NCBI GenBank assembly: GCA_001817685.1
Contig: MHIV01000010.1
Span: 1 to 30,185 of the forward strand
Direction: 5' to 3'
DNA from: Candidatus Colwellbacteria bacterium RIFCSPHIGHO2_02_FULL_45_17
GTDB lineage: Bacteria; Patescibacteriota; Minisyncoccia; UBA6257; Colwellbacteraceae
Length of the DNA stretch: 30,185 bases
In this document: positions 2 through 29,909 of the stretch, piece by piece
Position numbering within the stretch: the stretch's first letter is position 1
How the letters are laid out: each line of letters begins with the position of its first letter
The notes under the pieces: generated by a model
Databases searched by the model: none
Seen by the model: the letters and a program-made list of their open reading frames with translations, nothing else
Told to the model about the DNA's origin: nothing
Position numbers and translations under genes: made by a program

Positions 2-1051
2 GACATTGATAAAGCGCCAGAAGAGAGAGCGAGAGGTATCACCATTGCCCTCCACCATTCAGAGTATGAATCTGAAAAGCGTCACTATGCGCACATAGAC
101 GCTCCCGGACACGCGGACTATATAAAAAACATGATAACTGGTGCTGCACAGATGGACGGAGCAGTTTTGGTTGTTTCCGCAGCCGATGGTCCAATGCCCC
201 AAACACGAGAGCACATTCTGTTAGCTCGTCAGGTTGGTGTACCAGCAATCATCGTATTCCTGAACAAAATAGATCAAGTTGATGACAAAGATCTTATCGA
301 TTTGGTTGAAGCAGAAATTAGAGAGCTCCTGAAGAAATATGAATTTCCTGGAGATGAAGTGCCTATAGTTAAAGGTTCCGCTCTCAAGGCGCTTGAGACG
401 AAGTCTCTAGACGATGAGGCAGCAAAACCGATCTTGGAGCTGGTCAATTATCTCGATGAATATATTCCAGAGCCACAGCGCGATGTTGATAAACCGTTTC
501 TGATGCCGGTTGAGGACGTGTTCTCTATTGAAGGAAGAGGCACGGTTGCTACAGGGCGTATTGAAAGAGGCAAAGTCAAAGTAGGAGAGGACATTGAGCT
601 CGTTGGTATTAAAGCAACAAGCAAGACAACGGTTACTGGAATCGAGATGTTTAACAAGATGCTCGACGAAGGAATCGCTGGAGACAACGTCGGTATACTT
701 CTTCGTGGAACTAAGAAAGAAGATATTGAGCGCGGACAGGTTCTTTCCAAGCCGGGTTCAGTAACACCACACACGGAGTTTGTCGCAGAGGTTTATCTTC
801 TAAGCAAAGAAGAAGGAGGCCGACACACACCAGTCTTTCCAGGATACAAACCTCAATTCTACATTCGAACCACAGACGTTACCGGTGAGATGAAACTGCC
901 AGAGGGATCTGAGATGGCGATGCCAGGGGACACAGTAAACATTACCGTAAACTTGATTTCACCAGTTGCTCTTGAAGAGAAACAGCGTTTTGCTATTCGT
1001 GAAGGAGGCAAAACAGTTGGCGCTGGAGTTGTAACAAAAATCGTTAAGTAA
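2..1051 (+). CDS. tuf: Elongation factor Tu (5'-truncated by the window edge)
   Basis: Frame is open from position 2 ([15 protein letters not shown]...[17 protein letters not shown]) and continues into ORF 131..1051. Contains NKID (G4) and the C-terminal [11 protein letters not shown] typical of EF-Tu. Confidence 0.99.
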
Positions 1052-1389
1052 TGGCACCCAAAGTTAAGGACGAGAATGAAGGCGATAGGCTCCGTTTGAG
1101 AATCCGCTCTTACGACCATCGCTTGCTTGATAATTCTGCTAAGCAGATTATTGAAACCTTAACGCGCCATAACGCAAAAGTTATCGGTCCAATTCCTTTA
1201 CCTACAGAATTCAAACGCTATACCGTTAACCGATCTACGTTTGTCCACAAAGATTCGCGTGAGCAATTCGAATTGCGTATACACAAGCGCCTGATCGACG
1301 TAATAAAACCATCGCCGGGGGTAATAGAATCTCTTAGCGATTTGAATCTTCCTGCCGGGGTGGAGGTAGAGATAAAGATGGCTTCATAG
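1051..1389 (+). CDS. rpsJ: 30S ribosomal protein uS10
   Basis: RLRIRSYDHRLLD and GPIPLPT...HKDSREQFELRIHKRLID motifs; TAATG overlap with tuf. Confidence 0.98.
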   Translation: MAPKVKDENEGDRLRLRIRSYDHRLLDNSAKQIIETLTRHNAKVIGPIPLPTEFKRYTVNRSTFVHKDSREQFELRIHKRLIDVIKPSPGVIESLSDLNLPAGVEVEIKMAS

Positions 1390-1539
1390 GGGATTCTCTA
1401 GTAGTGGATATCGTCCAGGTAGTTACTCATCCCCGGGGGTTTACACCGCTATAATAATCGGTTATTATGAACCGCGCCTGAAAAACATACAGGGCACGGA
1501 GTATAAGCAACCGTTGCTTTAGTCGCCGGTTGTTTTTTT
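1389..1539 (+). promoter_or_regulatory. Structured 155-nt rpsJ-rplC intergenic region (candidate leader/attenuator)
   Basis: Stems GGGGAT(1389-94)/ATCCCC(1429-34) with nested AGTAG/TTACT and TGGA/TCCA; ATAATAA/TTATTAT inverted repeat (1451-68) overlapping TATAAT (1450-55); hairpin 1472-1499. No clear -35 box. Confidence 0.4.
1505..1539 (+). terminator. Intrinsic terminator-like hairpin just upstream of rplC
   Basis: AAGCAACCG(1505-13)/CGGTTGTTT(1527-35) followed by a T run to 1539. The 13-nt loop makes it a weak candidate. Confidence 0.4.
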
Positions 1540-1544
1540 AAGTC

Positions 1545-1967
1545 ATGGCATATATTAAAGCCAAAAAATTGAAGATGGGGCAGATATTTAAGGACGATGA
1601 AGTCATCCCCGTTACTTTTATTTCTTTAGCGGAAGACGCTGATACTGAATTTGAGGCTGGAAGCAAACTGAAAGTAAGCGGAATTTCTAAAGGCAGGGGC
1701 TTCCAGGGAGTAGTCAAACGTCATGGTTTCCATGGAAGCGATAAAACACACGGTCAGAAACATACACATAGAGCGCCAGGCTCAATAGGATCTACGGGAC
1801 CGCAAAGAGTTTTTCCGGGAATCAAAATGGCTGGGCGTATGGGAGGCACCACATCAACTCTAAGGAATTTGGAAGTAGTCTCATTTGATAAAGACAGAAA
1901 GATGCTTGTACTAAAAGGAGCAGTACCAGGCAATAGGGGCGGAGAACTGAAAATATACGTGAAATGA
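1545..1967 (+). CDS. rplC: 50S ribosomal protein uL3, internally deleted (140 aa)
   Basis: N-terminal KKLKMGQIF..VIPVT, then SKGRGFQGVVKRHGF, APGSIG, KMAGRMG and LKGAVPG; position after rpsJ. Confidence 0.97.
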   Translation: MAYIKAKKLKMGQIFKDDEVIPVTFISLAEDADTEFEAGSKLKVSGISKGRGFQGVVKRHGFHGSDKTHGQKHTHRAPGSIGSTGPQRVFPGIKMAGRMGGTTSTLRNLEVVSFDKDRKMLVLKGAVPGNRGGELKIYVK

Positions 1968-2599
1968 AAACGGACGTTTACGACAATAAAGCCAAGAAAG
2001 TAGGAACAGTTGATTTACCCGATCGCATTTTCGGTCATTCTTGGAATCCAGATTTGGTTCATCAAGCTGTAAGAACACAAACAGCTAACAAGCGTGCAAA
2101 TATCGCGCACGCGAAAGATAGGGGAGAAAGTCGTGGCGGCGGTAAGAAACCATGGAGACAAAAAGGAACTGGTCGTGCAAGGCACGGCTCCATTCGTTCT
2201 CCGATCTGGCGTGGCGGAGGCGTAACGCACGGTCCTACTAAAGAACGCGTGCTTTCATTAAAAATTAATAAGAAAATGAGGCAGGGCGCTATGTTCGCTA
2301 TTTTATCGAGGAAGCTCAAGGACGGTGATATCAAAGTGGTAGAATCTTTAGAAATTGACGAGCCAAAGACGGGGAAGCTCTCAGAAATCTTGAGCAATTT
2401 TGCAAAGGACAAACAAAATTTTTTGATAATACCAAACACTACCAGCAAAAATTTATATCAGGCAAGCAGGAACTTAAAGACAGTTAAAAGCTTGGACCCG
2501 CGATCCTTAAACGTTTACGATCTTTTGAAATACAAGCAAATTCTCGTTGAAAAAAACGCCGTCGAAGAGATGGACAAACACTATCATGCCGTTAAATAG
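1964..2599 (+). CDS. rplD: 50S ribosomal protein uL4
   Basis: RGGGKKPWRQKGTGRARHGSIRSPIWRGGG signature. Confidence 0.99.
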   Translation: MKTDVYDNKAKKVGTVDLPDRIFGHSWNPDLVHQAVRTQTANKRANIAHAKDRGESRGGGKKPWRQKGTGRARHGSIRSPIWRGGGVTHGPTKERVLSLKINKKMRQGAMFAILSRKLKDGDIKVVESLEIDEPKTGKLSEILSNFAKDKQNFLIIPNTTSKNLYQASRNLKTVKSLDPRSLNVYDLLKYKQILVEKNAVEEMDKHYHAVK

Positions 2600-2840
2600 A
2601 CTATTGATTAAAAATCCTCTTATTAGCGAGAAGGCGACAGATTTGGGCCAAGAGAACAAGTATGTATTTATGGTTAATCCGCGAGCGAACAAGAAACAGG
2701 TAAAAAAATTAATAGAGGAAATCTATGGAGTGACTGTCGTGGCAACAAATATCGTGAGAATGAATAAAAGAAGTAATAACTATAAGAAAGCCATAGTAAC
2801 ACTGAAGGATGGAGACAAAATAGATACTGTACCGCACTAG
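2586..2840 (+). CDS. rplW: 50S ribosomal protein uL23 (84 aa)
   Basis: PLISEKA, YVFMV, ANKKQVK and YKKAIVTL motifs. Start placed at ATG 2586 rather than the ORF-track start 2547. Confidence 0.95.
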   Translation: MPLNRLLIKNPLISEKATDLGQENKYVFMVNPRANKKQVKKLIEEIYGVTVVATNIVRMNKRSNNYKKAIVTLKDGDKIDTVPH

Positions 2841-2844
2841 AACT

Positions 2845-3690
2845 ATGAAGAGATATAAGCCATATACACATTCGAGAAGACATATGACAAGCGTGAGCTA
2901 CGGTGTCCTTAGCAAAGTCGCTCCGATGAAGAGCGCGCTAAGAGGGAAGACCAAAAGCGGAGCTAGAAACAGTTCTGGTAGAATCACGGTTCGTCACCAA
3001 GGAGGCGGAGTGAAAAGGCGTTTTAGGGTTATAGATTTGAAGCAGAGCGACAAGGTGAATGTTGAAGGTAAGATTGAAGCCATCGAGTATGATCCGAATA
3101 GAAGTGCGTTCATAATGAGAGTTCTATATAAAGACGGAGACCGAAGATATGTGTTAGCGCCCACAGAAGTGGAGGTAGGGAGAAAAATAATCGTAGCCGA
3201 GGAAGTTCCTCTTGAGGTTGGTAATAGGACGAAGTTATCAAATATCCCAGTCGGTTATTTCGTGCACAATATCGAAATGCAGCCGGGTAAGGGAGGCCAG
3301 ATTGTACGTTCTGCTGGTTCGCAGGCGCAAGTACTGGCGCATGAAGGTGGCTACACAAACTTGAAGTTGCCATCCGGAGAGGTAAGAAAGATACTTTCCA
3401 GAAATTTCGCATCTCTGGGGCAAGTTTCTAACCCAGAACATAACTTGATTGTTGTTGGTAAGGCGGGAAGAAAAAGACTCATGGGAATTCGCCCTACGGT
3501 TCGTGGTTCTGCAATGAACCCAGTAGACCATCCATACGGAGGTGGCGAAGGGCGTACCCAGCGTGGAACCAGGCGACCAAAAGATAAATGGAGTAACATC
3601 ACAGGCGGACGAAAGACAAGGAAAGCTAAGAGAAAATCAAGCTCTTACATCATACAAAGGAGATCGTCGAAACGAGCCAAAAAAAGATAA
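2845..3690 (+). CDS. rplB: 50S ribosomal protein uL2
   Basis: [30 protein letters not shown]. Confidence 0.99.
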
Positions 3691-3694
3691 AACC

Positions 3695-4030
3695 ATGAGT
3701 AGGAGTTCTAAAAAAGGTCCGCACGTAGACCCAAAACTGCTTAAGAAAATCTCTGTGCTAAAACCAGGTAGCAAAGCATCGATAAAGACTTGGGCACGAG
3801 ATTCCGAAATTGCCCCAGAGATGGTGGGATTCACTTTCGCGATTCACAACGGGAAAGACTTCATAGAGGTTCTAGTTAATGAAGATATGGTAGGTCATAG
3901 ATTGGGGGAATTCTCGCCAACAAGAAGATTTACTAAACACGGCGGAAAGATGCAACGTGCTATTGAGGCAGGCAAAGAAGTGGGTAAAGAAGTGGCAAAA
4001 GAACCGGTTAAAGAAGGAGGAAAGTCATGA
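3695..4030 (+). CDS. rpsS: 30S ribosomal protein uS19 with C-terminal extension (111 aa)
   Basis: [30 protein letters not shown]. Start at ATG 3695. Confidence 0.98.
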
Positions 4031-4527
4031 CAGAAATAAAGGCCACATTACGTAATTTAAATATCGCACCACGCAAAGTGCGTCTGGTTGCATCAAGCGT
4101 TAAGGGATTGCATGTACAGTCCGCTATTGCGCGGCTTGATTCAATGCCGCAAAGAAGCGCAGGACATCTGGCGAAATTGCTCTTATCAGCGGTTGCTAAT
4201 GCCAAGGATTTGAAATTGGACGAAAATAAGCTGGTAGTGAAATCAATCGAAGTTAATAAGGGAATAACCCTAAAGCGTATACGAGCCAGAGCGAAGGGTC
4301 GCGCGACGCCGGTTGAAAAAAAGATGAGTCACGTTACTCTCCTTCTCGAAGAAAGCGATAGCGTAAAAAGGCCCGAGTTTGTCATTCAGGAAAAGAAGAA
4401 GGAAGAAAAGAAAGAACCGAAACGTGAACGTAAAGAGCAACCGAGAGCGAAACAACAAGATACTGCGAATAAAGAAAAGACCAGAAAGGGATTCAAGGAA
4501 AGGGTGTTCAGAAGGAAGTCCGTATAA
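4027..4527 (+). CDS. rplV: 50S ribosomal protein uL22 with long charged C-terminal extension
   Basis: [31 protein letters not shown], then a ~55-aa K/E-rich tail. Confidence 0.97.
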
Positions 4528-4533
4528 AGAAAC

Positions 4534-5196
4534 ATGGGTAGAAAAATAAATCCAACAACATATAGGTTAGGCATAAACAGGGCATGGAGGTCCAGGTGGA
4601 TGCCTCCTGGTAATAAATTTGGAAACTGGCTTAAGGAGGACGAGGCAGTTAGAAATACCGTAATGGAAAAAGTGAAAAAAGCCGGGATAGCCGATATCGA
4701 AATAGAACGCACATCAGGCCAGTACCGTGTAGTTATAAAAGCCAGTAGGCCGGGTCTTATTATCGGAAGAGGAGGGGAGGGGGTACAACAACTGGAGAAA
4801 GCGATTAAGAAAGTCATTTCTAGCGATACCGCACTAAGCTTGAACGTCGAAGAGTTAAAAAGAACAGATGTTTCTGCTCAAGTAGTGGCACAGAACATGG
4901 CGTGGGATCTTGAAAAAAGAATGAGACACCGCAGGGTAATGAAAAGACACATCGATATAATAATGCAGAACAAAGAAGCCCAAGGAGCTAAAGTTATGTT
5001 AGCGGGGAGGCTGAATGGCGCAGAAATCGCGCGCACAGAGCACTTAGAAGAAGGAAAACTGCCGCTTACAACCATAAGAGCAAATATAGATTTCGGGAAA
5101 GCAATCGCTTTCACAAAATACGGCACTATTGGTGTTAAGGTTTGGATTTATAAGGGCGAAATATTCGAGAAGGAAGATAAACAAACTAGAGTCTAA
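4534..5196 (+). CDS. rpsC: 30S ribosomal protein uS3
   Basis: MGRKINP, SRPGLIIGRGG, GRLNGAEIARTE, YGTIGVKVWI. Confidence 0.99.
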   Translation: MGRKINPTTYRLGINRAWRSRWMPPGNKFGNWLKEDEAVRNTVMEKVKKAGIADIEIERTSGQYRVVIKASRPGLIIGRGGEGVQQLEKAIKKVISSDTALSLNVEELKRTDVSAQVVAQNMAWDLEKRMRHRRVMKRHIDIIMQNKEAQGAKVMLAGRLNGAEIARTEHLEEGKLPLTTIRANIDFGKAIAFTKYGTIGVKVWIYKGEIFEKEDKQTRV

Positions 5197-5204
5197 ACAA
5201 CAAT

Positions 5205-5621
5205 ATGTTGATGCCGAAGAAGGTAAAACACAGAAAATGGCACAAAGGACGCTCGAGGAAACGTCTAGTTGAAACGCGCGGAACGACAGTCGCGTATGGA
5301 ACTTATGGAATCCAGGCGCTCGAGTCTGCGTGGCTTGATTCAAAGCAAATCGAGGCAGGTAGAAGGGCAATAACAAGAGCGCTGAAGCGCGAAGGAATGG
5401 TATGGATTAGAGTGTTTCCGGATAAACCGATTACAAAAAAAGCCGCTGAAGTAGGAATGGGTAAAGGCAAGGGGGCTGTAGATCATTACGCTTTTCCGGT
5501 CCGTCCAGGAAGGGTAATTTTCGAAGTTGGCGGCGGCATCACAGAAGAACACGCAAGAGCTGCATTAAGATCCGCCAGTTTTAAAATGCCGTTTAGAACC
5601 AGAATAATCTCTAAAGTCTAG
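5205..5621 (+). CDS. rplP: 50S ribosomal protein uL16
   Basis: MLMPKKVKHRK, QIEAGRRAI, WIRVFPDKP, MGKGKG. Confidence 0.99.
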   Translation: MLMPKKVKHRKWHKGRSRKRLVETRGTTVAYGTYGIQALESAWLDSKQIEAGRRAITRALKREGMVWIRVFPDKPITKKAAEVGMGKGKGAVDHYAFPVRPGRVIFEVGGGITEEHARAALRSASFKMPFRTRIISKV

Positions 5622-5624
5622 ATT

Positions 5625-5846
5625 ATGGCAAAGGATGGATTCGAAAAATTGAGGGAGAAGGGGATCGAAGAGCTCAACAAAGAAACCGCGAAGGAAAAGC
5701 AGAAACTTCAGGAGTTAAAGTTTGACTTAGCGCGCGGAAAAGTAAAGAATAGCGCAGCGGTTAGGGATTCGAGAAGAAAAATAGCAAAACTCCTAACTTT
5801 TATTAACGAGAAAACAACTTCAGAAAATACAGCGCAAAATGGATAA
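5625..5846 (+). CDS. rpmC: 50S ribosomal protein uL29
   Basis: Helical, ending [10 protein letters not shown]; syntenic between rplP and rpsQ. Confidence 0.93.
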
Positions 5847-6093
5847 GGATAAGGTCAAACCAAAGAGGAGACAGCTTAAAGGCGTGGTTTCGTCAGACAA
5901 GATGGACAAAACCGTCGTTGTGACTGTTTCTGCGAGAAAGCAACACGAGAAGTATTTGAAGTATCACAATGTTAGCAAGCGCTTTAAGGCACATGACGAG
6001 AACAACGAATACAAAGTTGGAGACAAAGTTGTGATAGAAGAAACGAGGCCGATATCGAAAGACAAACACTGGAGAGTAGTAAGCAAGATATGA
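5839..6093 (+). CDS. rpsQ: 30S ribosomal protein uS17
   Basis: [30 protein letters not shown]. Confidence 0.98.
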
Positions 6094-6458
6094 TTCAGGA
6101 ACAAACCATACTAAAAGTTGCGGACAATAGCGGGGCGAAAGTCATTCGCTGTTTCAGGATTTTGGGAGGAACAAGAAGGCGCTACGCGAGAGTCGGAGAT
6201 TTAATTGTCGCATCCGTGCAATCCGCAGAACCAAGGAAACAGGTTAAAAAGAAGGAAATCGTAAGAGCAGTTATAGTTAGAAGTCGAGATGCAATTCGTA
6301 GAAAAGACGGAAGCTATGTAAGATTCGATGAAAACGCGGCGGTTCTTGTGGATGCCAAAAAGCTTCCGCGCGCGACAAGAATATTCGGTCCAATACCAAG
6401 AGAGTTAAAAGAAAGGGGCTACGACAAGATAGTCTCTCTAGCACAGGACGTTGTGTAG
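6090..6458 (+). CDS. rplN: 50S ribosomal protein uL14
   Basis: [35 protein letters not shown]. Confidence 0.99.
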
Positions 6459-6463
6459 AAACC

Positions 6464-6769
6464 ATGGATATACGTAAAGGAGATAAAGTGTTTATTACAA
6501 AAGGAAAGGACAAAGGTAAGTCCAATAAGGTTATTCGCGTGGTCCCAAAAGATGGCACTGTTGTTATCGAGGGTCTTAACATGCGCAAGAAGACAATACG
6601 TCCTAAGAAACAAGGAGAGAAAGGCCAAGTTGTCGAGGTCCCATGGTCTATGAAGATAGATAACGTAATGCTTGTTTGTAGTTCATGCGGGAAGCCATCA
6701 AGGATCGGTCATAAAATAGAAGGCGATAAAAAAGTAAGATACTGTAAAAGATGCAAGGCAGCGGTCTAG
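6464..6769 (+). CDS. rplX: 50S ribosomal protein uL24 (CxxC...CxxC form)
   Basis: IRKGDKV..ITKGKDKGK KOW motif; CSSC and CKRC pairs. Confidence 0.98.
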   Translation: MDIRKGDKVFITKGKDKGKSNKVIRVVPKDGTVVIEGLNMRKKTIRPKKQGEKGQVVEVPWSMKIDNVMLVCSSCGKPSRIGHKIEGDKKVRYCKRCKAAV

Positions 6770-7230
6770 AAAAAATTGTTGTGGCAACGGGAGTTGGTAA
6801 GCTGAGGCAAAGGCCTGGTTTTGTCGAGACTATTTTGCCGACTATCGAAAAGGATCTAGCTGCGATTACTGGTCAAAAACCCTCGCAAAGGACTGCAAGG
6901 AAATCAGTCGCCGGTTTTAAAATAAGAGGCGGCGAGGTAGTCGGACTGAAGGTTACATTGAGAGGCAGGAGAATGAACGATTTTCTCAAAAGATTAATCG
7001 AGGTGGTCATGCCGAGAATCAGAGATTTTCACGGAATAGATCCAGGGCAGATAGACCAGGGAGGAAATTTGACAATAGGAATCAAGGAACATATCGTCTT
7101 CCCAGAGGTTAATCCAGACGAAGTAAAATTCGACTTTGGGCTGGAGATAACTCTTGTACCGGCTACGAGAGATAAAGAAAAAAGCTACGAATTGTATAAG
7201 TCGCTAGGCGTACCTCTGCAAAGTAAATAA
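6751..7230 (+). CDS. rplE: 50S ribosomal protein uL5, N-terminally shortened (159 aa)
   Basis: [46 protein letters not shown]. In-frame TAA at 6745-47 prevents an upstream extension. Confidence 0.97.
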
Positions 7231-7231
7231 A

Positions 7232-7417
7232 ATGGCAAAGAAGTCTGTTATAGCAAGGTCAAAAAGAGAACCGAAGTATAGAACGAGAGGAGTGCGTCGC
7301 TGTTTTAGGTGTGGAAGGAAGCGTGGATATCAACGCGATTTTGATCTTTGTAGGATTTGCTTCAGAGAGCTTGCGAGCGAAGGTAAAATACCCGGAGTTA
7401 AGAAATCATCTTGGTAA
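7232..7417 (+). CDS. rpsN: 30S ribosomal protein uS14, zinc-binding type
   Basis: 61 aa; RCFRCGR...[10 protein letters not shown]...PGVKKSSW. Confidence 0.98.
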
Positions 7418-7418
7418 T

Positions 7419-7802
7419 ATGTATTGGGATTCAATCATAAGAGTTAAAAACGGACTAGAAAGAGGCTTTGAAAGAGTCAAGGTGCCTTATTCTAGCTTTG
7501 ATATGAACATCCTCGAACTATTAACAAAAGAAGGGTATATAGGAACCGTATCGCGAAAAGGTAGGGGTGTGAGGCGCATTATAGATATTAAACTCAAATA
7601 CGACAGCGAAGGTGAGCCCGCAATTAGGGGCGTCAAATTTGTAAGTCGTCCGTCTAGGCGTCTTTATTCAGGATATAGGAAGACCAAAACATCGAGACAA
7701 GGATCCGGACACTATATATTGTCCACTCCTGAGGGAATACTGACTGACAAAGAAGCACGCAAAAAGAAAGTCGGCGGACAGGTACTCTTCGAAATCTGGT
7801 AA
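7419..7802 (+). CDS. rpsH: 30S ribosomal protein uS8 (127 aa)
   Basis: LTKEGYI, VSRPSRRLY, ILSTPEGILTDKEARKKKVGG. Start at ATG 7419. Confidence 0.98.
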   Translation: MYWDSIIRVKNGLERGFERVKVPYSSFDMNILELLTKEGYIGTVSRKGRGVRRIIDIKLKYDSEGEPAIRGVKFVSRPSRRLYSGYRKTKTSRQGSGHYILSTPEGILTDKEARKKKVGGQVLFEIW

Positions 7803-7804
7803 TT

Positions 7805-8353
7805 ATGAGCAGAATAGGCATAAAACCAGTTGTAATACCCGAAGGAGTAACGGTTGATGTGAAAGAAAGCGAGGTTGAGATAAAAGGAAAGAACGCGACT
7901 TTGAACGTCCCTCTATTAAGAGGTATCTCGGTCACAATCGAAGATGGCACAGTGGTGTTTTCCCCATCCAATAAAACAAAACAGGTTTCAAGTAACTGGG
8001 GAACGATGAGAGCTCTTGTCGAAAATGCTGTTATAGGTGCGACTAAGAATTTTTCGAAAGATCTTATAGTCGAAGGCATAGGATACCGCGCAAGCGTTGA
8101 AGGAAATGATTTAATTCTTAATCTCGGACACTCACATCCAATTAAATTCCCGATACCAGTGGATATAGAAATTAAAATTGATAAAAACGTCATTACTATT
8201 TCGGGTGCGGACAAATCACGCGTTGGCGAAACCGCAGCGAAGATAAAAAGATTCAGAAAGCCTGAGCCGTATAAAGGCAAGGGAATCAGGTATAGTGACG
8301 AGATTATAAAGAGAAAGGCTGGCAAGAAAGCTGTCGGGTCGGAGGGAAAGTAG
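7805..8353 (+). CDS. rplF: 50S ribosomal protein uL6
   Basis: MSRIGIKP, GIGYRA, LGHSHP, RKPEPYKGKGIRY. Confidence 0.99.
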   Translation: MSRIGIKPVVIPEGVTVDVKESEVEIKGKNATLNVPLLRGISVTIEDGTVVFSPSNKTKQVSSNWGTMRALVENAVIGATKNFSKDLIVEGIGYRASVEGNDLILNLGHSHPIKFPIPVDIEIKIDKNVITISGADKSRVGETAAKIKRFRKPEPYKGKGIRYSDEIIKRKAGKKAVGSEGK

Positions 8354-8357
8354 AACT

Positions 8358-8708
8358 ATGACACCAAGAATCAAGCAAAACCGAGAGCAAAGAATAAGAC
8401 GCAGCCGTGCAAAAGCGTTCGGTACGTTGAAGAAACCGAGGCTGTCAGTATACAGAAGCAATAAAAATCTTAGCCTACAGTTGATTGATGACGAATCTGG
8501 GAAGACCATTGTGGCAGCATCAACAAGGGAATTAAAGAATGACAAAATGTCGAAAAGCGAACAGGCGCTTGCTGTTGGAGAACTACTTGCCAAGAAAGCG
8601 AAAGATGCAAAGATAACATCGGCTATTTTTGATAGGAGATTTTATAAATATCATGGTAGAGTCAAAGCAGTCGCGGAAGGAGCGCGACGCGGAGGCTTAA
8701 ATCTTTAA
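8358..8708 (+). CDS. rplR: 50S ribosomal protein uL18
   Basis: PRLSVYRSNK, QLIDD, FDRRFYKYHGRVKAVAEGAR. Confidence 0.98.
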   Translation: MTPRIKQNREQRIRRSRAKAFGTLKKPRLSVYRSNKNLSLQLIDDESGKTIVAASTRELKNDKMSKSEQALAVGELLAKKAKDAKITSAIFDRRFYKYHGRVKAVAEGARRGGLNL

Positions 8709-8709
8709 T

Positions 8710-9225
8710 ATGATAGACCGCAAACCCAGAAAAACCACTGATCGATTTAGAAAACAAGACGAGTATGAAGAGCAAGTACTTGATCTTAGGCGTGTGACGC
8801 GTGTCACTGCTGGTGGAAAAAGATTTCGATTCCGCGCTACGGTTGTCCTTGGAAATGGGAAAGGAAAAGTTGGTGTCGGAATCGGCAAGGGGCCAGATGT
8901 ACAAAAAGCCGTAGATAAAGCAAAGACGCAAGCCAAAAAAGATATTATAACTATAAAACTTAAGAACAATACAATTCCGCATCAAGTTGAAGCAAAGTTT
9001 AGTGCGGCAAGAGTATTAATAAAACCAGCAGCTGCGGGTCATGGCCTAATGGCGGGCGGCTCACCGCGTGTAGTTTTGAAGCTTGCTGGAGTAAAGGATG
9101 CTACAGCTAAATGCGTAGGGCGTACCAAAAACAAGCTTACTAATGCCCTTGCTGCGATTGAGGCCCTAAAACAATTGAAGAGCGACAACGACAGAAATAA
9201 AAACTCAAGCGGCGAAGAAGTATAA
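8710..9225 (+). CDS. rpsE: 30S ribosomal protein uS5
   Basis: RRVTRVTAGGKRFRFRATVVLGN, VLIKPA..GHGLMAGG. Confidence 0.99.
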   Translation: MIDRKPRKTTDRFRKQDEYEEQVLDLRRVTRVTAGGKRFRFRATVVLGNGKGKVGVGIGKGPDVQKAVDKAKTQAKKDIITIKLKNNTIPHQVEAKFSAARVLIKPAAAGHGLMAGGSPRVVLKLAGVKDATAKCVGRTKNKLTNALAAIEALKQLKSDNDRNKNSSGEEV

Positions 9226-9264
9226 GATACTAAAGAAACACTCGTTCCTCTCTACGATTTAAAT

Positions 9265-9513
9265 ATGCAACTACATGAATTAAAACCCACGACAGTAAAT
9301 AAAGGCAAAAAGCGCATCGGTCGCGGTGGTAAACGCGGCACATATTCTGGAAAGGGAATGAAGGGTCAAAAATCGCGCGCCGGTAGAAGAATTAGGCCTG
9401 CGATAAGAGACTTGATGCAAAGAACGCCAAAATTGCGCGGTGCCAAAAACCAGGCTTCGCGTTATAAGAGAACTAGGAAAGAAAAGAGAGCAAAAAGACA
9501 AAAGAATGCTTAA
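9265..9513 (+). CDS. rplO: 50S ribosomal protein uL15, C-terminally truncated (82 aa)
   Basis: KRIGRGGKRGTYSGKGMKGQKSRAG and PKLRG of the uL15 N-terminus; position between rpsE and secY. Confidence 0.93.
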   Translation: MQLHELKPTTVNKGKKRIGRGGKRGTYSGKGMKGQKSRAGRRIRPAIRDLMQRTPKLRGAKNQASRYKRTRKEKRAKRQKNA

Positions 9514-10783
9514 CTTCAAAAGAGGAGCAAAACTTTTCAAGTTAAAAGACTTGAGAAAAAGAGTGATAACAGTTGCGGTTATACTCGTTGCTTTTCGCAT
9601 TCTAGCAAATATCCCAATACCTGGCGTAGATAGCGAGGCGCTTATATCTTTCTTCTCCAGTAACCAGCTCTTGGGATTCTTGAACATTTTCTCTGGCGGC
9701 GCGCTTTCTAACTTATCAATCGCCATGTTAGGTCTCGGTCCATACATCACAGCGATCATTATCATGCAGCTCTTAACGATGATTTTTCCAAAATTGAAGT
9801 CTCTATACTATGAAGAGGGCGAACAAGGACGTTCAAAGTTTAACCGTTACTCTCGATATCTGACCGTTCCGCTTGCTGGTATGCAGGGTTATGGTTTTCT
9901 GAGGATCTTGGCCTCGCAGGGAATTCTGCCCAATCTTACACTCGCCTCGACACTCGTGAATGTTCTCATAATAGTCGCGGGATCTATGATCCTCGTATGG
10001 TTCGGTGAGCTCATAACTGAACAGAAAATGGGCAACGGAGTTTCACTTTTGATTTTCGCTGGTATCGTAAGTGGTATACCGCTATCCATGAGAAACGCAT
10101 TGCTCTCATATACGACGAGTCAGCTCCCGACTTTTCTAGCCTTTATAACGGTGGCATTACTCGTAATCGTTGGTATTGTCCTTGTGCATGAAGGTGAGAG
10201 AAAGGTGCCTATCTCCTATGCGAAGCGTGTGAGAGGAAACAAAATGTACGGAGGTGTATCTTCTTATTTGCCGTTCAGAGTGGGTCAGGCTGGCGTGATT
10301 CCAATTATTTTCGCGATTTCCCTCTTACTTTTTCCTCAATTCTTTGGTCAGATTATTGCCGGGTTCTCTCCGGGAATCGGCGCGACGATAAACGATTTTA
10401 CGACAGGGCTCCTAAACAATCAGGTTGTGTACGGCTTGATATATTTCACCCTAGTGTTCCTGTTCACGTATTTTTATATAGGGATAACGTTTGACCCAGA
10501 TGAAATTTCGAAAAACCTTCAACGAAGCGGTGGTTTCGTCCCTGGTATCAGGCCTGGCCAGCCGACTGCGGACTTTCTAAAAAGCATTGTCTCAAAAATC
10601 ACTTTCTTCGGAGGATTATTCCTCGGATTCATTGCGGTTCTTCCGACAATCACACAATCTGTCACAGGCACGCAGGCCTTAACTTTAGGTGGAACTTCAA
10701 TACTCATTGTAGTTGCTGTTGTGATAGAAACCGCTAAACAAATTGACGCTGAGTTAACAGTTCGTGAATACGAGGGGGTATAA
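9506..10783 (+). CDS. secY: Preprotein translocase subunit SecY (425 aa)
   Basis: IPIPG, FSGGAL, LGLGPYITA, GNGVSLLIFAGI, QAGVIPIIFA, GFVPGIRPG, GGTSILIVV. Start at ATG 9506. Confidence 0.99.
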   Translation: MLNFKRGAKLFKLKDLRKRVITVAVILVAFRILANIPIPGVDSEALISFFSSNQLLGFLNIFSGGALSNLSIAMLGLGPYITAIIIMQLLTMIFPKLKSLYYEEGEQGRSKFNRYSRYLTVPLAGMQGYGFLRILASQGILPNLTLASTLVNVLIIVAGSMILVWFGELITEQKMGNGVSLLIFAGIVSGIPLSMRNALLSYTTSQLPTFLAFITVALLVIVGIVLVHEGERKVPISYAKRVRGNKMYGGVSSYLPFRVGQAGVIPIIFAISLLLFPQFFGQIIAGFSPGIGATINDFTTGLLNNQVVYGLIYFTLVFLFTYFYIGITFDPDEISKNLQRSGGFVPGIRPGQPTADFLKSIVSKITFFGGLFLGFIAVLPTITQSVTGTQALTLGGTSILIVVAVVIETAKQIDAELTVREYEGV

Positions 10784-10790
10784 TAAAGTC

Positions 10791-11450
10791 ATGCAGAAGT
10801 CCATTCACGTAATGGGTCCTCCTGGCTCCGGGAAAGGAACACAGGCAGACCTCGTCGCAGACTATCTTAATGCGATCCACTTCGATTCTGGAAGATATTT
10901 TGAGCGCCTCATAAAGGAGAATGATCCGTTGATGACCCCTGAACTTAGAAGGCAGTTTAACGAGGGAGAATTACTGGACCCGAGGATGTTTCTTGAGCTT
11001 GTGAGCAAGCGCATAGAGGCCATTGCAAACTCTGGGTTTAGCGTAGTTTTCAGCGGTCAGCCAAGGACTATTTTAGAAACCTTCGGAGATGAAAATTTGC
11101 ATGGTTTTATGGAAATTCTAAGCGGTCTATACGGTAAAGAGAACATTATTATGTTTAAGCTGATGATACCTGAGGAGGTGTCGATAGACAGAAATAGTAA
11201 CCGCCTAGTGTGTTCTATCTGTAAGAAAGGAAGTATAGTTCGTGACGCTAAGATGTGTTCCTTATGCGGCGGTGACTTGTACAAACGCACCCTAGATGAT
11301 CCAGAAGTAATAAAAACTAGATTAAAAGAATATAGCGAGCGCACAGAGCCGCTCTTTAAAATGTTGAAGGAGGGGGGGTTTAATGTAATCGAAATAGACG
11401 GCACACCGACACCAGCGGAAATTTTCAAGAATATACAAAAACATTTGTAG
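10791..11450 (+). CDS. adk: Adenylate kinase-family NMP kinase with CxxC/CxxC zinc LID (219 aa)
   Basis: P-loop GPPGSGKGT; CSIC...CSLC; DD.EVIKTRLKEY; synteny after secY. The NMP-binding motifs are divergent. Confidence 0.88.
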   Translation: MQKSIHVMGPPGSGKGTQADLVADYLNAIHFDSGRYFERLIKENDPLMTPELRRQFNEGELLDPRMFLELVSKRIEAIANSGFSVVFSGQPRTILETFGDENLHGFMEILSGLYGKENIIMFKLMIPEEVSIDRNSNRLVCSICKKGSIVRDAKMCSLCGGDLYKRTLDDPEVIKTRLKEYSERTEPLFKMLKEGGFNVIEIDGTPTPAEIFKNIQKHL

Positions 11451-12211
11451 TGGGAAAGTTTATTAAGTCCGAAAAGCAGATAGATAATATCAGGAAGTCT
11501 GGGATAATACTTTCTGCGACTCTCAAGGAGCTCGCGAAGCAAGTTAAGCCAGGGGTGAAACCCGTTGACTTAGATATGCTCGCTAGGGAATTAATCGAAA
11601 AAAAAGGAGGTACTCCAGCTTTTCTCGGTTACAAACCAGAAGGCGCCTTATACCCCTTTCCTTTTGCGCTTTGTGTATCGGTAAATGAAGTAATAGTCCA
11701 CGGCAGGCCGTCGGACAATCCCCTAAAAGAAGGAGACATAGTAACTTTGGATTTAGGTGTAGATTGGCAAGGCGGCATCAGCGACTCAGCGATTACAATT
11801 CCCGTTGGGAAGATAACAAAGGAAGCGCAACACTTAATAGAACTAACAAGTCGTGCATTGGATAAAGCAATCGACGAGGTCAAGCCCGGGAAAACGGTGG
11901 GGGATATTGGCCATGCGGTAGAGAAAACCGTAAGGCTTGGAGGATTGAACATAGTGGATGGTTTAACCGGCCACGGAGTTGGAGAGAAAGTTCACGAGGA
12001 CCCCGTTATTTACAATTTTGGAGAGCCAAACACGGGAATGGAACTCAAACCCGGGATGGTTATTGCGATTGAGCCGATGGTCTCTATGGGAGGAAAAGGG
12101 ATAAAACAACTCGCAGATGACAGCTTCGTAACCTCAGACGGAAGCCTGTCGGCGCAGTTCGAGCATACAGTCCTTGTTACCAGCGGCGGCAACGAAATTT
12201 TAACAAAATGA
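11450..12211 (+). CDS. map: Methionine aminopeptidase type I
   Basis: CVSVNEVIVHG, DLGV...DSAIT, GHGVG, AIEPM, SAQFEHTV. Confidence 0.98.
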   Translation: MGKFIKSEKQIDNIRKSGIILSATLKELAKQVKPGVKPVDLDMLARELIEKKGGTPAFLGYKPEGALYPFPFALCVSVNEVIVHGRPSDNPLKEGDIVTLDLGVDWQGGISDSAITIPVGKITKEAQHLIELTSRALDKAIDEVKPGKTVGDIGHAVEKTVRLGGLNIVDGLTGHGVGEKVHEDPVIYNFGEPNTGMELKPGMVIAIEPMVSMGGKGIKQLADDSFVTSDGSLSAQFEHTVLVTSGGNEILTK

Positions 12212-29471: not shown

Positions 29472-29866
29472 GGAGGTAATCCAGATAGTAGCTTTTCTCT
29501 AGAAGTTTCCATTATCGGTCATCGACTGCTCTTCACATTCGGAAACCCAAAGGAGTAAAGAGGAAAGTCCGGACACCCCTTCGACTTCGGTCGAAGAGCA
29601 AGGTAGCGGGTAACGCCCGTCGCACGTAAGTGTAGAGGTGCGAGCAGTAACGGTCTCGACTCGCAAGAGTCGGACGAACCCAATCCCAACGTAGAAGGTT
29701 CTGCTTGGCTATAGGGATAAGAAAGCCAAGATGAAACGGCAAAATCCTTACCCGGGTGCAAGGTCGTACTCCGACTTCGGTTGGAGAGTACCGCATGAGC
29801 CCGAGAGTAATCGAGGGTCTAGATAAATTACTATCAGATACAGAATCCGGCTTACGGATTGCCTCC
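29472..29866 (+). ncRNA. rnpB: RNase P RNA (~395 nt)
   Basis: Universal GAGGAAAGTCC (29560-70) and ACAGAATCCGGCTTA near the 3' end; P1 GGAGGTAATCC/GGATTGCCTCC; P2 GATAGTAG/TTACTATC; P8 CGGGTAACGCCCG. Confidence 0.97.
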
Positions 29867-29909
29867 AAAACAGGACTATCTCCCAAGATAGTCCTGCTTT
29901 GTTTTTTTT
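29867..29909 (+). terminator. rnpB intrinsic terminator (potentially bidirectional)
   Basis: CAGGACTATCT-CCCA-AGATAGTCCTG, perfect 11-bp stem; T-rich tail on the plus strand and AAAA on the 5' side. Confidence 0.85.

Follow-up and report, generated by a model that had tools for sequence, protein, structure and literature searches.

The window analysed here, the 30,185-nt contig MHIV01000010.1 of Candidatus Colwellbacteria bacterium RIFCSPHIGHO2_02_FULL_45_17, carries tuf followed by a classical S10-spc ribosomal protein operon on the + strand (positions 2-12,200), in which four proteins of the large subunit, uL3, uL5, uL15 and uL23, are shortened. Comparison with relatives demonstrated that these losses are fixed, conserved and nested, which represents a stepwise reduction and not one coordinated event. 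It is highly probable that the four are functional ribosomal genes of a Parcubacteria (Ca. Colwellbacteria-like) lineage, from which peripheral modules were removed successively by reductive evolution. Judged from relatives, the rRNA neither shrank nor changed in step with the protein losses.

The window is one contig (C10) of a 38-contig draft genome of 461,877 bp, rated 92% complete. This genome is labelled G000 and its family f1, and other G and f numbers denote sampled relatives and families, respectively. Following tuf, the gene order is uS10, uL3, uL4, uL23, uL2, uS19, uL22, uS3, uL16, uL29, uS17, uL14, uL24, uL5, uS14, uS8, uL6, uL18, uS5, uL15, secY, adk and map, and Pfam matches support the identities of the operon proteins. 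The initial annotation, made from the sequence alone, had proposed that the four proteins were reduced together, with matching changes in the 23S and 5S rRNAs, as a lineage-specific ribosome architecture.

Extent and functional state of the four shortened proteins

The four genes and the gene that bounds the last of them are as follows (aa, amino acids; ORF, open reading frame, in later entries).
1545..1967, + strand: uL3, 140 aa, with an in-frame internal deletion of ~70 residues (PF00297, E 2.7e-15; gap in the PDB alignment)
2586..2840, + strand: uL23, 84 aa from the ATG, with a hairpin loop ~10 residues shorter (PF00276, E 6.3e-22; PDB and family-wide alignments)
6751..7230, + strand: uL5, 159 aa, without the N-terminal ~25 residues, a helix (PF00281 and PF00673; PDB alignment)
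9265..9513, + strand: uL15, 82 aa, consisting of the N-terminal arm (1-~60) and a K/R tail of ~20 aa (phmmer against PDB; synteny)
9506..10783, + strand: secY, the ATG of which overlaps the uL15 stop by 8 nt

In the PDB alignment, residues 5-32 of uL3 correspond to residues 6-34 of Staphylococcus aureus uL3 and residues 33-137 to residues 108-211, with ~73 internal residues (S. aureus 35-107) gone and the deletion junction located at approximately nt 1629-1658, in an acidic linker. The finger loop directed towards the peptidyl-transferase centre (PTC) is kept, its motif (GFxG ... PGS.G ... MAG.MG) is present, and the gene sits between uS10 and uL4. Family identity is evidenced by a PF00297 match above the cut-off, a phmmer match in PDB with an E-value of 8e-30 and a Foldseek probability of 1.00 to bacterial uL3. 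The complete two-part body of solved bacterial uL3 proteins (~205-220 aa) was not found, and the protein is still a family member in a reduced form. It is the sole uL3 copy in the genome. In the f1 alignment of uL3, the invariant columns fall mostly in the finger loop (residues 46-100). The AlphaFold (AF2) model of the short protein gives a confident beta-barrel (predicted local distance difference test, pLDDT, ~90 for residues 1-50 and 100-140) and a finger loop of low confidence, as would be expected of a segment that folds inside rRNA. The best fold matches of the model are bacterial uL3 chains, aligned end to end.

uL15 is cut at its C-terminus. Residues 1-56/68 align to residues 1-63/73 of the ~146-aa bacterial protein, a range matched by phmmer in 16 different L15 sequences of known structure (E 3e-6 to 9e-4), and the remainder is the K/R tail (nt 9445-9510). 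The same Gly/Lys/Arg-rich N-terminal arm aligns with the full-length uL15 of all 16 other sampled families of the order. The Pfam model describes the C-terminal part that is gone, which is why the 82-aa protein gave no Pfam match, and this globular domain, PF00828 (Ribosomal_L27A, L27A/L18e-type), is absent genome-wide. As the uL15 stop overlaps the secY ATG at 9506, there is no space for a longer uL15.

The other two reductions are smaller. Residues 2-157 of uL5 align to reference residues 27-178, and both Pfam domains (PF00281, E 1.1e-14; PF00673, E 2.8e-28) are carried; the loss is confined to the ~25 residues that precede the Pfam N-domain. The uL5 ATG lies one codon after an upstream stop, and the first 19 nt of the gene lie within the end of uL24. 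In uL23, compared to PDB chains, a gap of 10 residues falls in the beta-hairpin (intra-tunnel) loop, at approximately nt 2757-2783. The PF00276 profile is matched and the tip of the bacterial loop is missing. An upstream in-frame TTG at 2547 is an alternative start, which would give a uL23 of 97 aa.

Each shortened protein retains its most conserved segment. The kept parts would be those that work inside the rRNA, namely the uL3 beta-barrel core with its finger loop towards the PTC and the uL15 arm, along with the whole 5S-rRNA-binding body of uL5 and the globular domain of uL23 at the tunnel exit. The parts given up are the subdomain appended to the uL3 barrel, the globular domain of uL15, the N-terminal helix of uL5 and the tip of the intra-tunnel hairpin of uL23. 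No uL30 gene lies between uS5 and uL15, which are separated by a 39-nt spacer, and PF00327 has no match genome-wide. The ORFs, their lengths, the PDB alignments and this genome-wide search thus agree with the annotated reduction of the four proteins and absence of uL30. uL1 was likewise not found in a genome-wide search. As a separate observation, bL9 (PF01281) was not found in the 92%-complete G000 and is present in the relatives G017, G011 and G026.

The operon was compared in a first sample of 40 relatives, comprising 24 further f1 genera and 16 other families of the order, and a second sample of 40 genomes from the order, class and phylum was added (80 relatives in all). uL15 is 61-90 aa long in 23 of the 24 other f1 genera, and uL3 is 137-146 aa long in all 20 f1 genomes with data. 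These short forms recur in independent assemblies, some of them with only 4 or 7 contigs and a completeness rating of 100%. The mean pairwise identities within f1 are 0.64 for uL15, 0.57 for uL3, 0.56 for uL5 and 0.46 for uL23, compared with 0.44-0.76 for the other operon proteins. In the closest pairs, the proportion of nonsynonymous differences (pN) is 0.09-0.30 and that of synonymous differences (pS) 0.60-0.88, and control ribosomal proteins behave alike. The initial annotation had suggested the ratio of nonsynonymous to synonymous rates (dN/dS) as a check. Even the closest pairs have reached saturation at synonymous sites, and therefore only pN << pS, and no such ratio, can be stated.

These data bear on the explanation that the short genes arose through mistakes in assembly or annotation, are pseudogenes, or represent one half each of genes that were split. 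The draft state of the genome, with its 38 contigs, its completeness of 92% and short runs of N elsewhere in the assembly, would favour such an origin. However, the frames are intact, the window contains zero N, the boundaries are identical in independent assemblies of at least 20 genera, and purifying selection is strong. Split or second genes for the lost modules were also sought, and neither a Pfam search of the genome nor tblastn with the outgroup modules returned any; the lone weak tblastn match proved to be a PolX/PHP polymerase gene, leaving no leftover modules in the genome. An artefact or decaying genes are thus hardly credible, and the annotated view that these are not pseudogenes is borne out by the open frames, the family-wide conservation and pN << pS.

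Nested losses among relatives

Each module was scored in the relatives against profiles of the full-length forms, and a quick tree was built from the concatenation of the 15 other operon proteins. Of the 40 class and phylum genomes sampled outside the order, 38 have all four modules, and both exceptions belong to f29. In this family of the same class (G296 and G324), the C-terminus of uL15 has partially decayed in an independent event, with frames of 106 and 114 aa, and uL3, uL5 and uL23 are intact.

Inside the order, the four losses reach to different depths. The N-terminal helix of uL5 is missing in most families; f4, f5, f6 and f9 have it in full and a few others in part. About half of the families (f1, f3, f7, f15, f16 and f18) carry the uL3 deletion, whereas in f4, f6, f9, f10, f17 and f19 the protein is either complete or shortened only in part. 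Within the order, the C-domain of uL15 and the loop of uL23 are missing in f1 only, and uL15 is full-length in all 16 other families first sampled. The tree recovers f1 with full support, and the fewest changes on it are one for uL15, two each for uL23 and uL5, and three for uL3.

Two f1 genomes are intermediates. G021, placed at the unresolved base of the family, has short uL3 and uL5, but its uL15 C-domain and uL23 loop are still present; in G022, uL15 is short and the uL23 loop full. The reduction has gone further in a six-genus f1 subclade (G004, G007, G012, G014, G022 and G024; loci L017, L020, L024, L026, L034 and L036), in which uL15 is only 61-67 aa long. In these genomes, the gap between uL16 and uS17 is 1-9 nt in five and an overlap in G024, and the uL29 gene has therefore been deleted from the operon. 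The nearest named relative is a metagenome-assembled genome with the label Candidatus Colwellbacteria. Its uL3 has the same short form, matching over the full length at 64% identity, and its uL15 is short as well.

The sequence of events suggested by this distribution is that the earliest and most widespread loss in the order was that of the uL5 N-terminus, with the uL3 subdomain next, that the uL15 and uL23 parts were lost on or near the f1 stem, and that one subclade then deleted uL29. The proposal that the four proteins were reduced together is not upheld, as the losses form a nested set and differ in age, with uL5 affected most widely, uL3 less so, and uL15 and uL23 least, and intermediates exist.

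Ribosomal RNA, tunnel exit and the rest of the operon

The 23S and 5S rRNAs of G000 are unassembled and the rRNA comparison therefore rests on relatives. Eighteen full 23S rRNAs of the order were compared with E. coli rrlH in two MAFFT alignments; nine came from short-uL15 genomes (with a short uL23 loop too, except G022), one from G021 and eight from other families. All 18 sequences show gaps relative to E. coli at 902-907, 1726-1736 and 1753-1767 and an insertion near 281, and most are also without ~2782-2804 (E. coli numbering). The gaps at 1726-1736 and 1753-1767, present in 18/18 of these relatives, and the one at ~2782-2804 in most of them may correspond to the 23Gap surface helices (e.g. 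H63 and H98, the helix naming being approximate) of a published survey of the candidate phyla radiation (CPR) (PMC9297842). Among the 18 sequences, no 23S indel or helix loss is private to the short-uL15/uL23 genomes, and only two of ~2900 positions (405 and 507) are diagnostic for the short-protein group. The length of 5S rRNA is no different either, being 106-118 nt in f1 and 105-119 nt outside, with full model coverage. The matching 23S/5S change that had been predicted is thus not seen in the relatives.

Apparent 3' deletions of 23S in G005, G009, G021 and G038 were rejected as extraction artefacts, because an insertion separates the 3' domain; 5S lies 1.4-1.9 kb past the reported 23S end. 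Insertions of 100-700 nt were observed in the 23S genes of several relatives (L060 of G016, L068 of G027, L063 of G021, L071 of G040 and others), for example near E. coli positions 1179, 1931 and 2593, and these fit the known CPR rRNA insertion sequences.

One interpretation of all the losses is that the four truncations and the absence of uL30 form one co-adapted change of the 50S subunit, accompanied by changes in 23S and 5S rRNA. Indeed, the four reductions co-occur with absent uL30 and uL1 in nearly every f1 genome, and uL15 and uL23 change near the same node. Such a redesign is nevertheless quite improbable, given the different phylogenetic depths of the four losses, the intermediates G021 and G022, the partial uL15 loss in f29 with the other three proteins intact, and a 23S rRNA with two diagnostic positions and no private indel beside an unchanged 5S rRNA. 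Moreover, according to the main text of the CPR survey, uL30 is missing from all CPR (PMC9297842), and its loss is therefore far older. The uL15-uL23 association itself is beyond a statistical test because it offers only one independent contrast.

The loss of the uL23 loop invited comparison with the factors that dock at the tunnel exit, since the bacterial loop touches the C-terminus of Ffh and the nascent chain in the tunnel (PMC8082313). The M domain of SRP54 (PF02978), a subunit of the signal recognition particle (SRP), was found in 0/41 genomes of the order. The SRP-type GTPase domain PF00448, common to Ffh and FtsY, was found in 0/5, with 0/71 in the class and 0/61 in the phylum, and the controls were positive in 14/14. 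TIGR00959 gave no real match in three closed CPR genomes, and a scan of G000 for SRP GTPase motifs matched only other proteins. Overall, the SRP pathway is undetected in G000 and 172 other CPR genomes, in line with the reported absence of SRP subunits in many CPR (PMC8080830). The absence of SRP may relax constraint on the tunnel-exit platform; being phylum-wide in our sample, it is therefore insufficient alone to explain a family-level loss of the uL23 loop. Trigger factor was also considered as the cause and rejected, as its occurrence is patchy (4 of 24 f1 genera and 7 of 16 other families) and does not follow the state of the loop, some genomes with a short loop having it. In G000, trigger factor is absent.

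The other ribosomal protein genes of the operon are listed below, with the evidence for each.
1051..1389, + strand: uS10, 112 aa, full or slightly extended (PF00338, E 2.3e-33, profile 1-98/98)
1964..2599, + strand: uL4, 211 aa, full length (PF00573, E 1.7e-65, profile 1-189/190)
2845..3690, + strand: uL2, 281 aa, full length (ORF; 273-281 aa in nearly all relatives)
3695..4030, + strand: uS19, 111 aa, with an A/K/E-rich C-terminal extension (PF00203, E 2e-32)
4027..4527, + strand: uL22, 166 aa, with a K/E-rich C-terminal extension of ~55 aa (PF00237 spans residues 6-107 only)
4534..5196, + strand: uS3, 220 aa, ordinary length (ORF; 212-260 aa in relatives)
5205-5621, + strand: uL16, ordinary length (ORF; lengths in relatives)
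5625-5846, + strand: uL29, ordinary length (ORF; lengths in relatives)
5839-6093, + strand: uS17, 84 aa, ordinary length (ORF; lengths in relatives)
6090-6458, + strand: uL14, ordinary length (ORF; lengths in relatives)
6464-6769, + strand: uL24, ordinary length, with a Cys4 zinc-ribbon-like C-terminus (ORF; Pfam matches)
7232-7417, + strand: uS14, 61 aa, zinc type (ORF)
7419-7802, + strand: uS8, 127 aa, ordinary length (ORF)
7805-8353, + strand: uL6, ordinary length (ORF)
8358-8708, + strand: uL18, ordinary length (ORF)
8710-9225, + strand: uS5, 171 aa, ordinary length (ORF; Pfam)

All seven 30S proteins in the window (uS10, uS19, uS3, uS17, uS14, uS8 and uS5) are of ordinary or extended length, as first annotated, and so are nine further 50S proteins of the operon. 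Shortening therefore affects 4/13 large-subunit and 0/7 small-subunit proteins, a difference that is not significant alone (P = 0.15). This contrast within the window agrees with the published CPR-wide bias towards the large subunit and is suggestive only. Two features lie outside the coding sequences. The uS10-uL3 spacer (1390-1544) is unusual in its length of 155 nt and contains one promoter-like site, TTTACA-17-TATTAT (1440-1468), with no Rfam match. An RNase P RNA of bacterial class A is encoded at 29473-29869 on the + strand (108.5 bits, full model).

The extended proteins raise the question of compensation, in which extensions of neighbouring proteins, or new small basic proteins of the lineage, would fill the vacated rRNA, giving a ribosome that is remodelled and not smaller. 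The extensions on uL22 (+55 aa) and uS19 (+20 aa) and the K/R tail on uL15 are in keeping with this, as are the CPR-specific extensions described in the main text of the CPR survey (PMC9297842). On the other hand, the uL22 and uS19 extensions are order-wide and also occur in genomes with full uL15 and uL23, and therefore do not track the losses. The frames of bL35 (63-74 aa) are the same in short- and full-uL15 genomes (five tested), those of uL13 are no different across the order, and the operon contains no extra ORF, in an analysis that included no systematic search for family-specific proteins. Compensated replacement is thus unlikely. The uL22 extension, found in most of the order, is not present in G021 or G032.

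The depletion in f1 amounts to no uL30, no uL1, a uL15 reduced to its arm, a uL3 without its outer subdomain and a uL23 without its tunnel loop, with uL29 gone in one subclade. A further, rather doubtful thought is that the exit and back side of the f1 50S subunit might be the most protein-depleted bacterial one mapped, on an essentially unchanged 23S rRNA. Bare rRNA would then be tolerated or family-specific proteins would fill the sites, and the docking platform at the tunnel exit would be decaying in a phylum with no detectable SRP.

The reading that we prefer remains successive removal of peripheral modules from functional genes. The cause would be drift acting on the shrinking genome of an ultra-small, symbiont-like organism, and not a single coordinated redesign; the lost pieces would be peripheral, and we infer that their removal was therefore tolerated and fixed. 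Several points weigh against this reading. The order of events hangs on a quick tree with several unresolved forks. The uL3 tests conflict: on the concatenated tree, the approximately unbiased (AU) test rejects a single clade of uL3-deletion carriers (p = 0.0045), while in the uL3 gene tree, with the deleted columns left out, one branch splits deletion from full alleles (Shimodaira-Hasegawa-like approximate likelihood ratio test, SH-aLRT, 95). Repeated deletion would account for this, as would a single origin combined with allele transfer or an error in the tree. The finding of no rRNA change comes from relatives and from MAFFT alignments that are blind to secondary structure. Finally, the solvent-side position and dispensability of the lost modules are drawn from general knowledge of bacterial 50S structures.

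Comparison with known reduced ribosomes

The closest counterpart is the reduced ribosome of the CPR (Tsurumaki, Saito, Tomita, Kanai 2022, RNA 28:1041; PMC9297842). As stated in the main text of that survey, some CPR have uL3 without an internal region, uL2 and uL5 without an N-terminal region and uL15 without a C-terminal region. The proteins with missing regions belong preferentially to the large subunit, and protein loss comes without loss of the rRNA binding sites. uL1 is described as absent from a Parcubacteria subgroup, and in Parcubacteria uL13 is short and uS19 is extended by an A/K-rich tail. The window genome matches this description in having no uL30, no uL1, a short uL13 and the uS19 tail (PMC9297842). 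It differs in uL2, the N-terminal loss of which is not seen in the window (281 aa), and in uL23, which the main text lists among the proteins tending to be larger, with no mention there of a loop loss. Nor does the main text assign the truncations of uL3, uL5 and uL15 to a named lineage or give an order of events.

The kind of shortening is thus already published, and f1 is a further, better-resolved instance of it. What had been annotated as a lineage-specific architecture holds for the four-fold combination, which is an f1 trait, and does not extend to the kinds of truncation, which the survey had already described. New are the lineage, the nesting with its intermediates, the uL23 loop loss, the uL29 loss in a subclade and the negative result on 23S and 5S rRNA. 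This is no new kind of ribosome, as the co-change of rRNA, which would have been the striking element, was not found in the relatives. The family provides a named, well-sampled lineage in which to study a published but loosely located phenomenon, and a natural series on a constant rRNA scaffold, from the full set through the losses in uL5, uL3 and uL15/uL23 to the loss of uL29. It is useful for exploring the limits to which the bacterial large subunit can be pared down and for finding the parts of uL3 and uL15 that are really needed.

Reductive truncation of ribosomal proteins is likewise described, in the cryo-EM account of the minimal ribosome of the microsporidian Encephalitozoon cuniculi, for a parasite with a tiny genome (PMC8807834). 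That ribosome is eukaryotic, unlike the one encoded in the window. Its protein truncations reportedly follow the loss of rRNA expansion segments, whereas the rRNA is unchanged in f1. Archaeal and eukaryotic uL23 proteins are without the bacterial intra-tunnel loop and have eL39 in its place; similar to these, f1 uL23 has no hairpin lining the lower tunnel. In E. coli, mutants of the Dabbs collection without L15, L29, L30 or L1 are said to have ribosomes that still work, which is in keeping with the view that the parts lost in f1 are dispensable. These are reportedly laboratory strains with growth or assembly defects that lack the whole protein, whereas f1 keeps the N-terminal arm of uL15 in a strongly conserved form.

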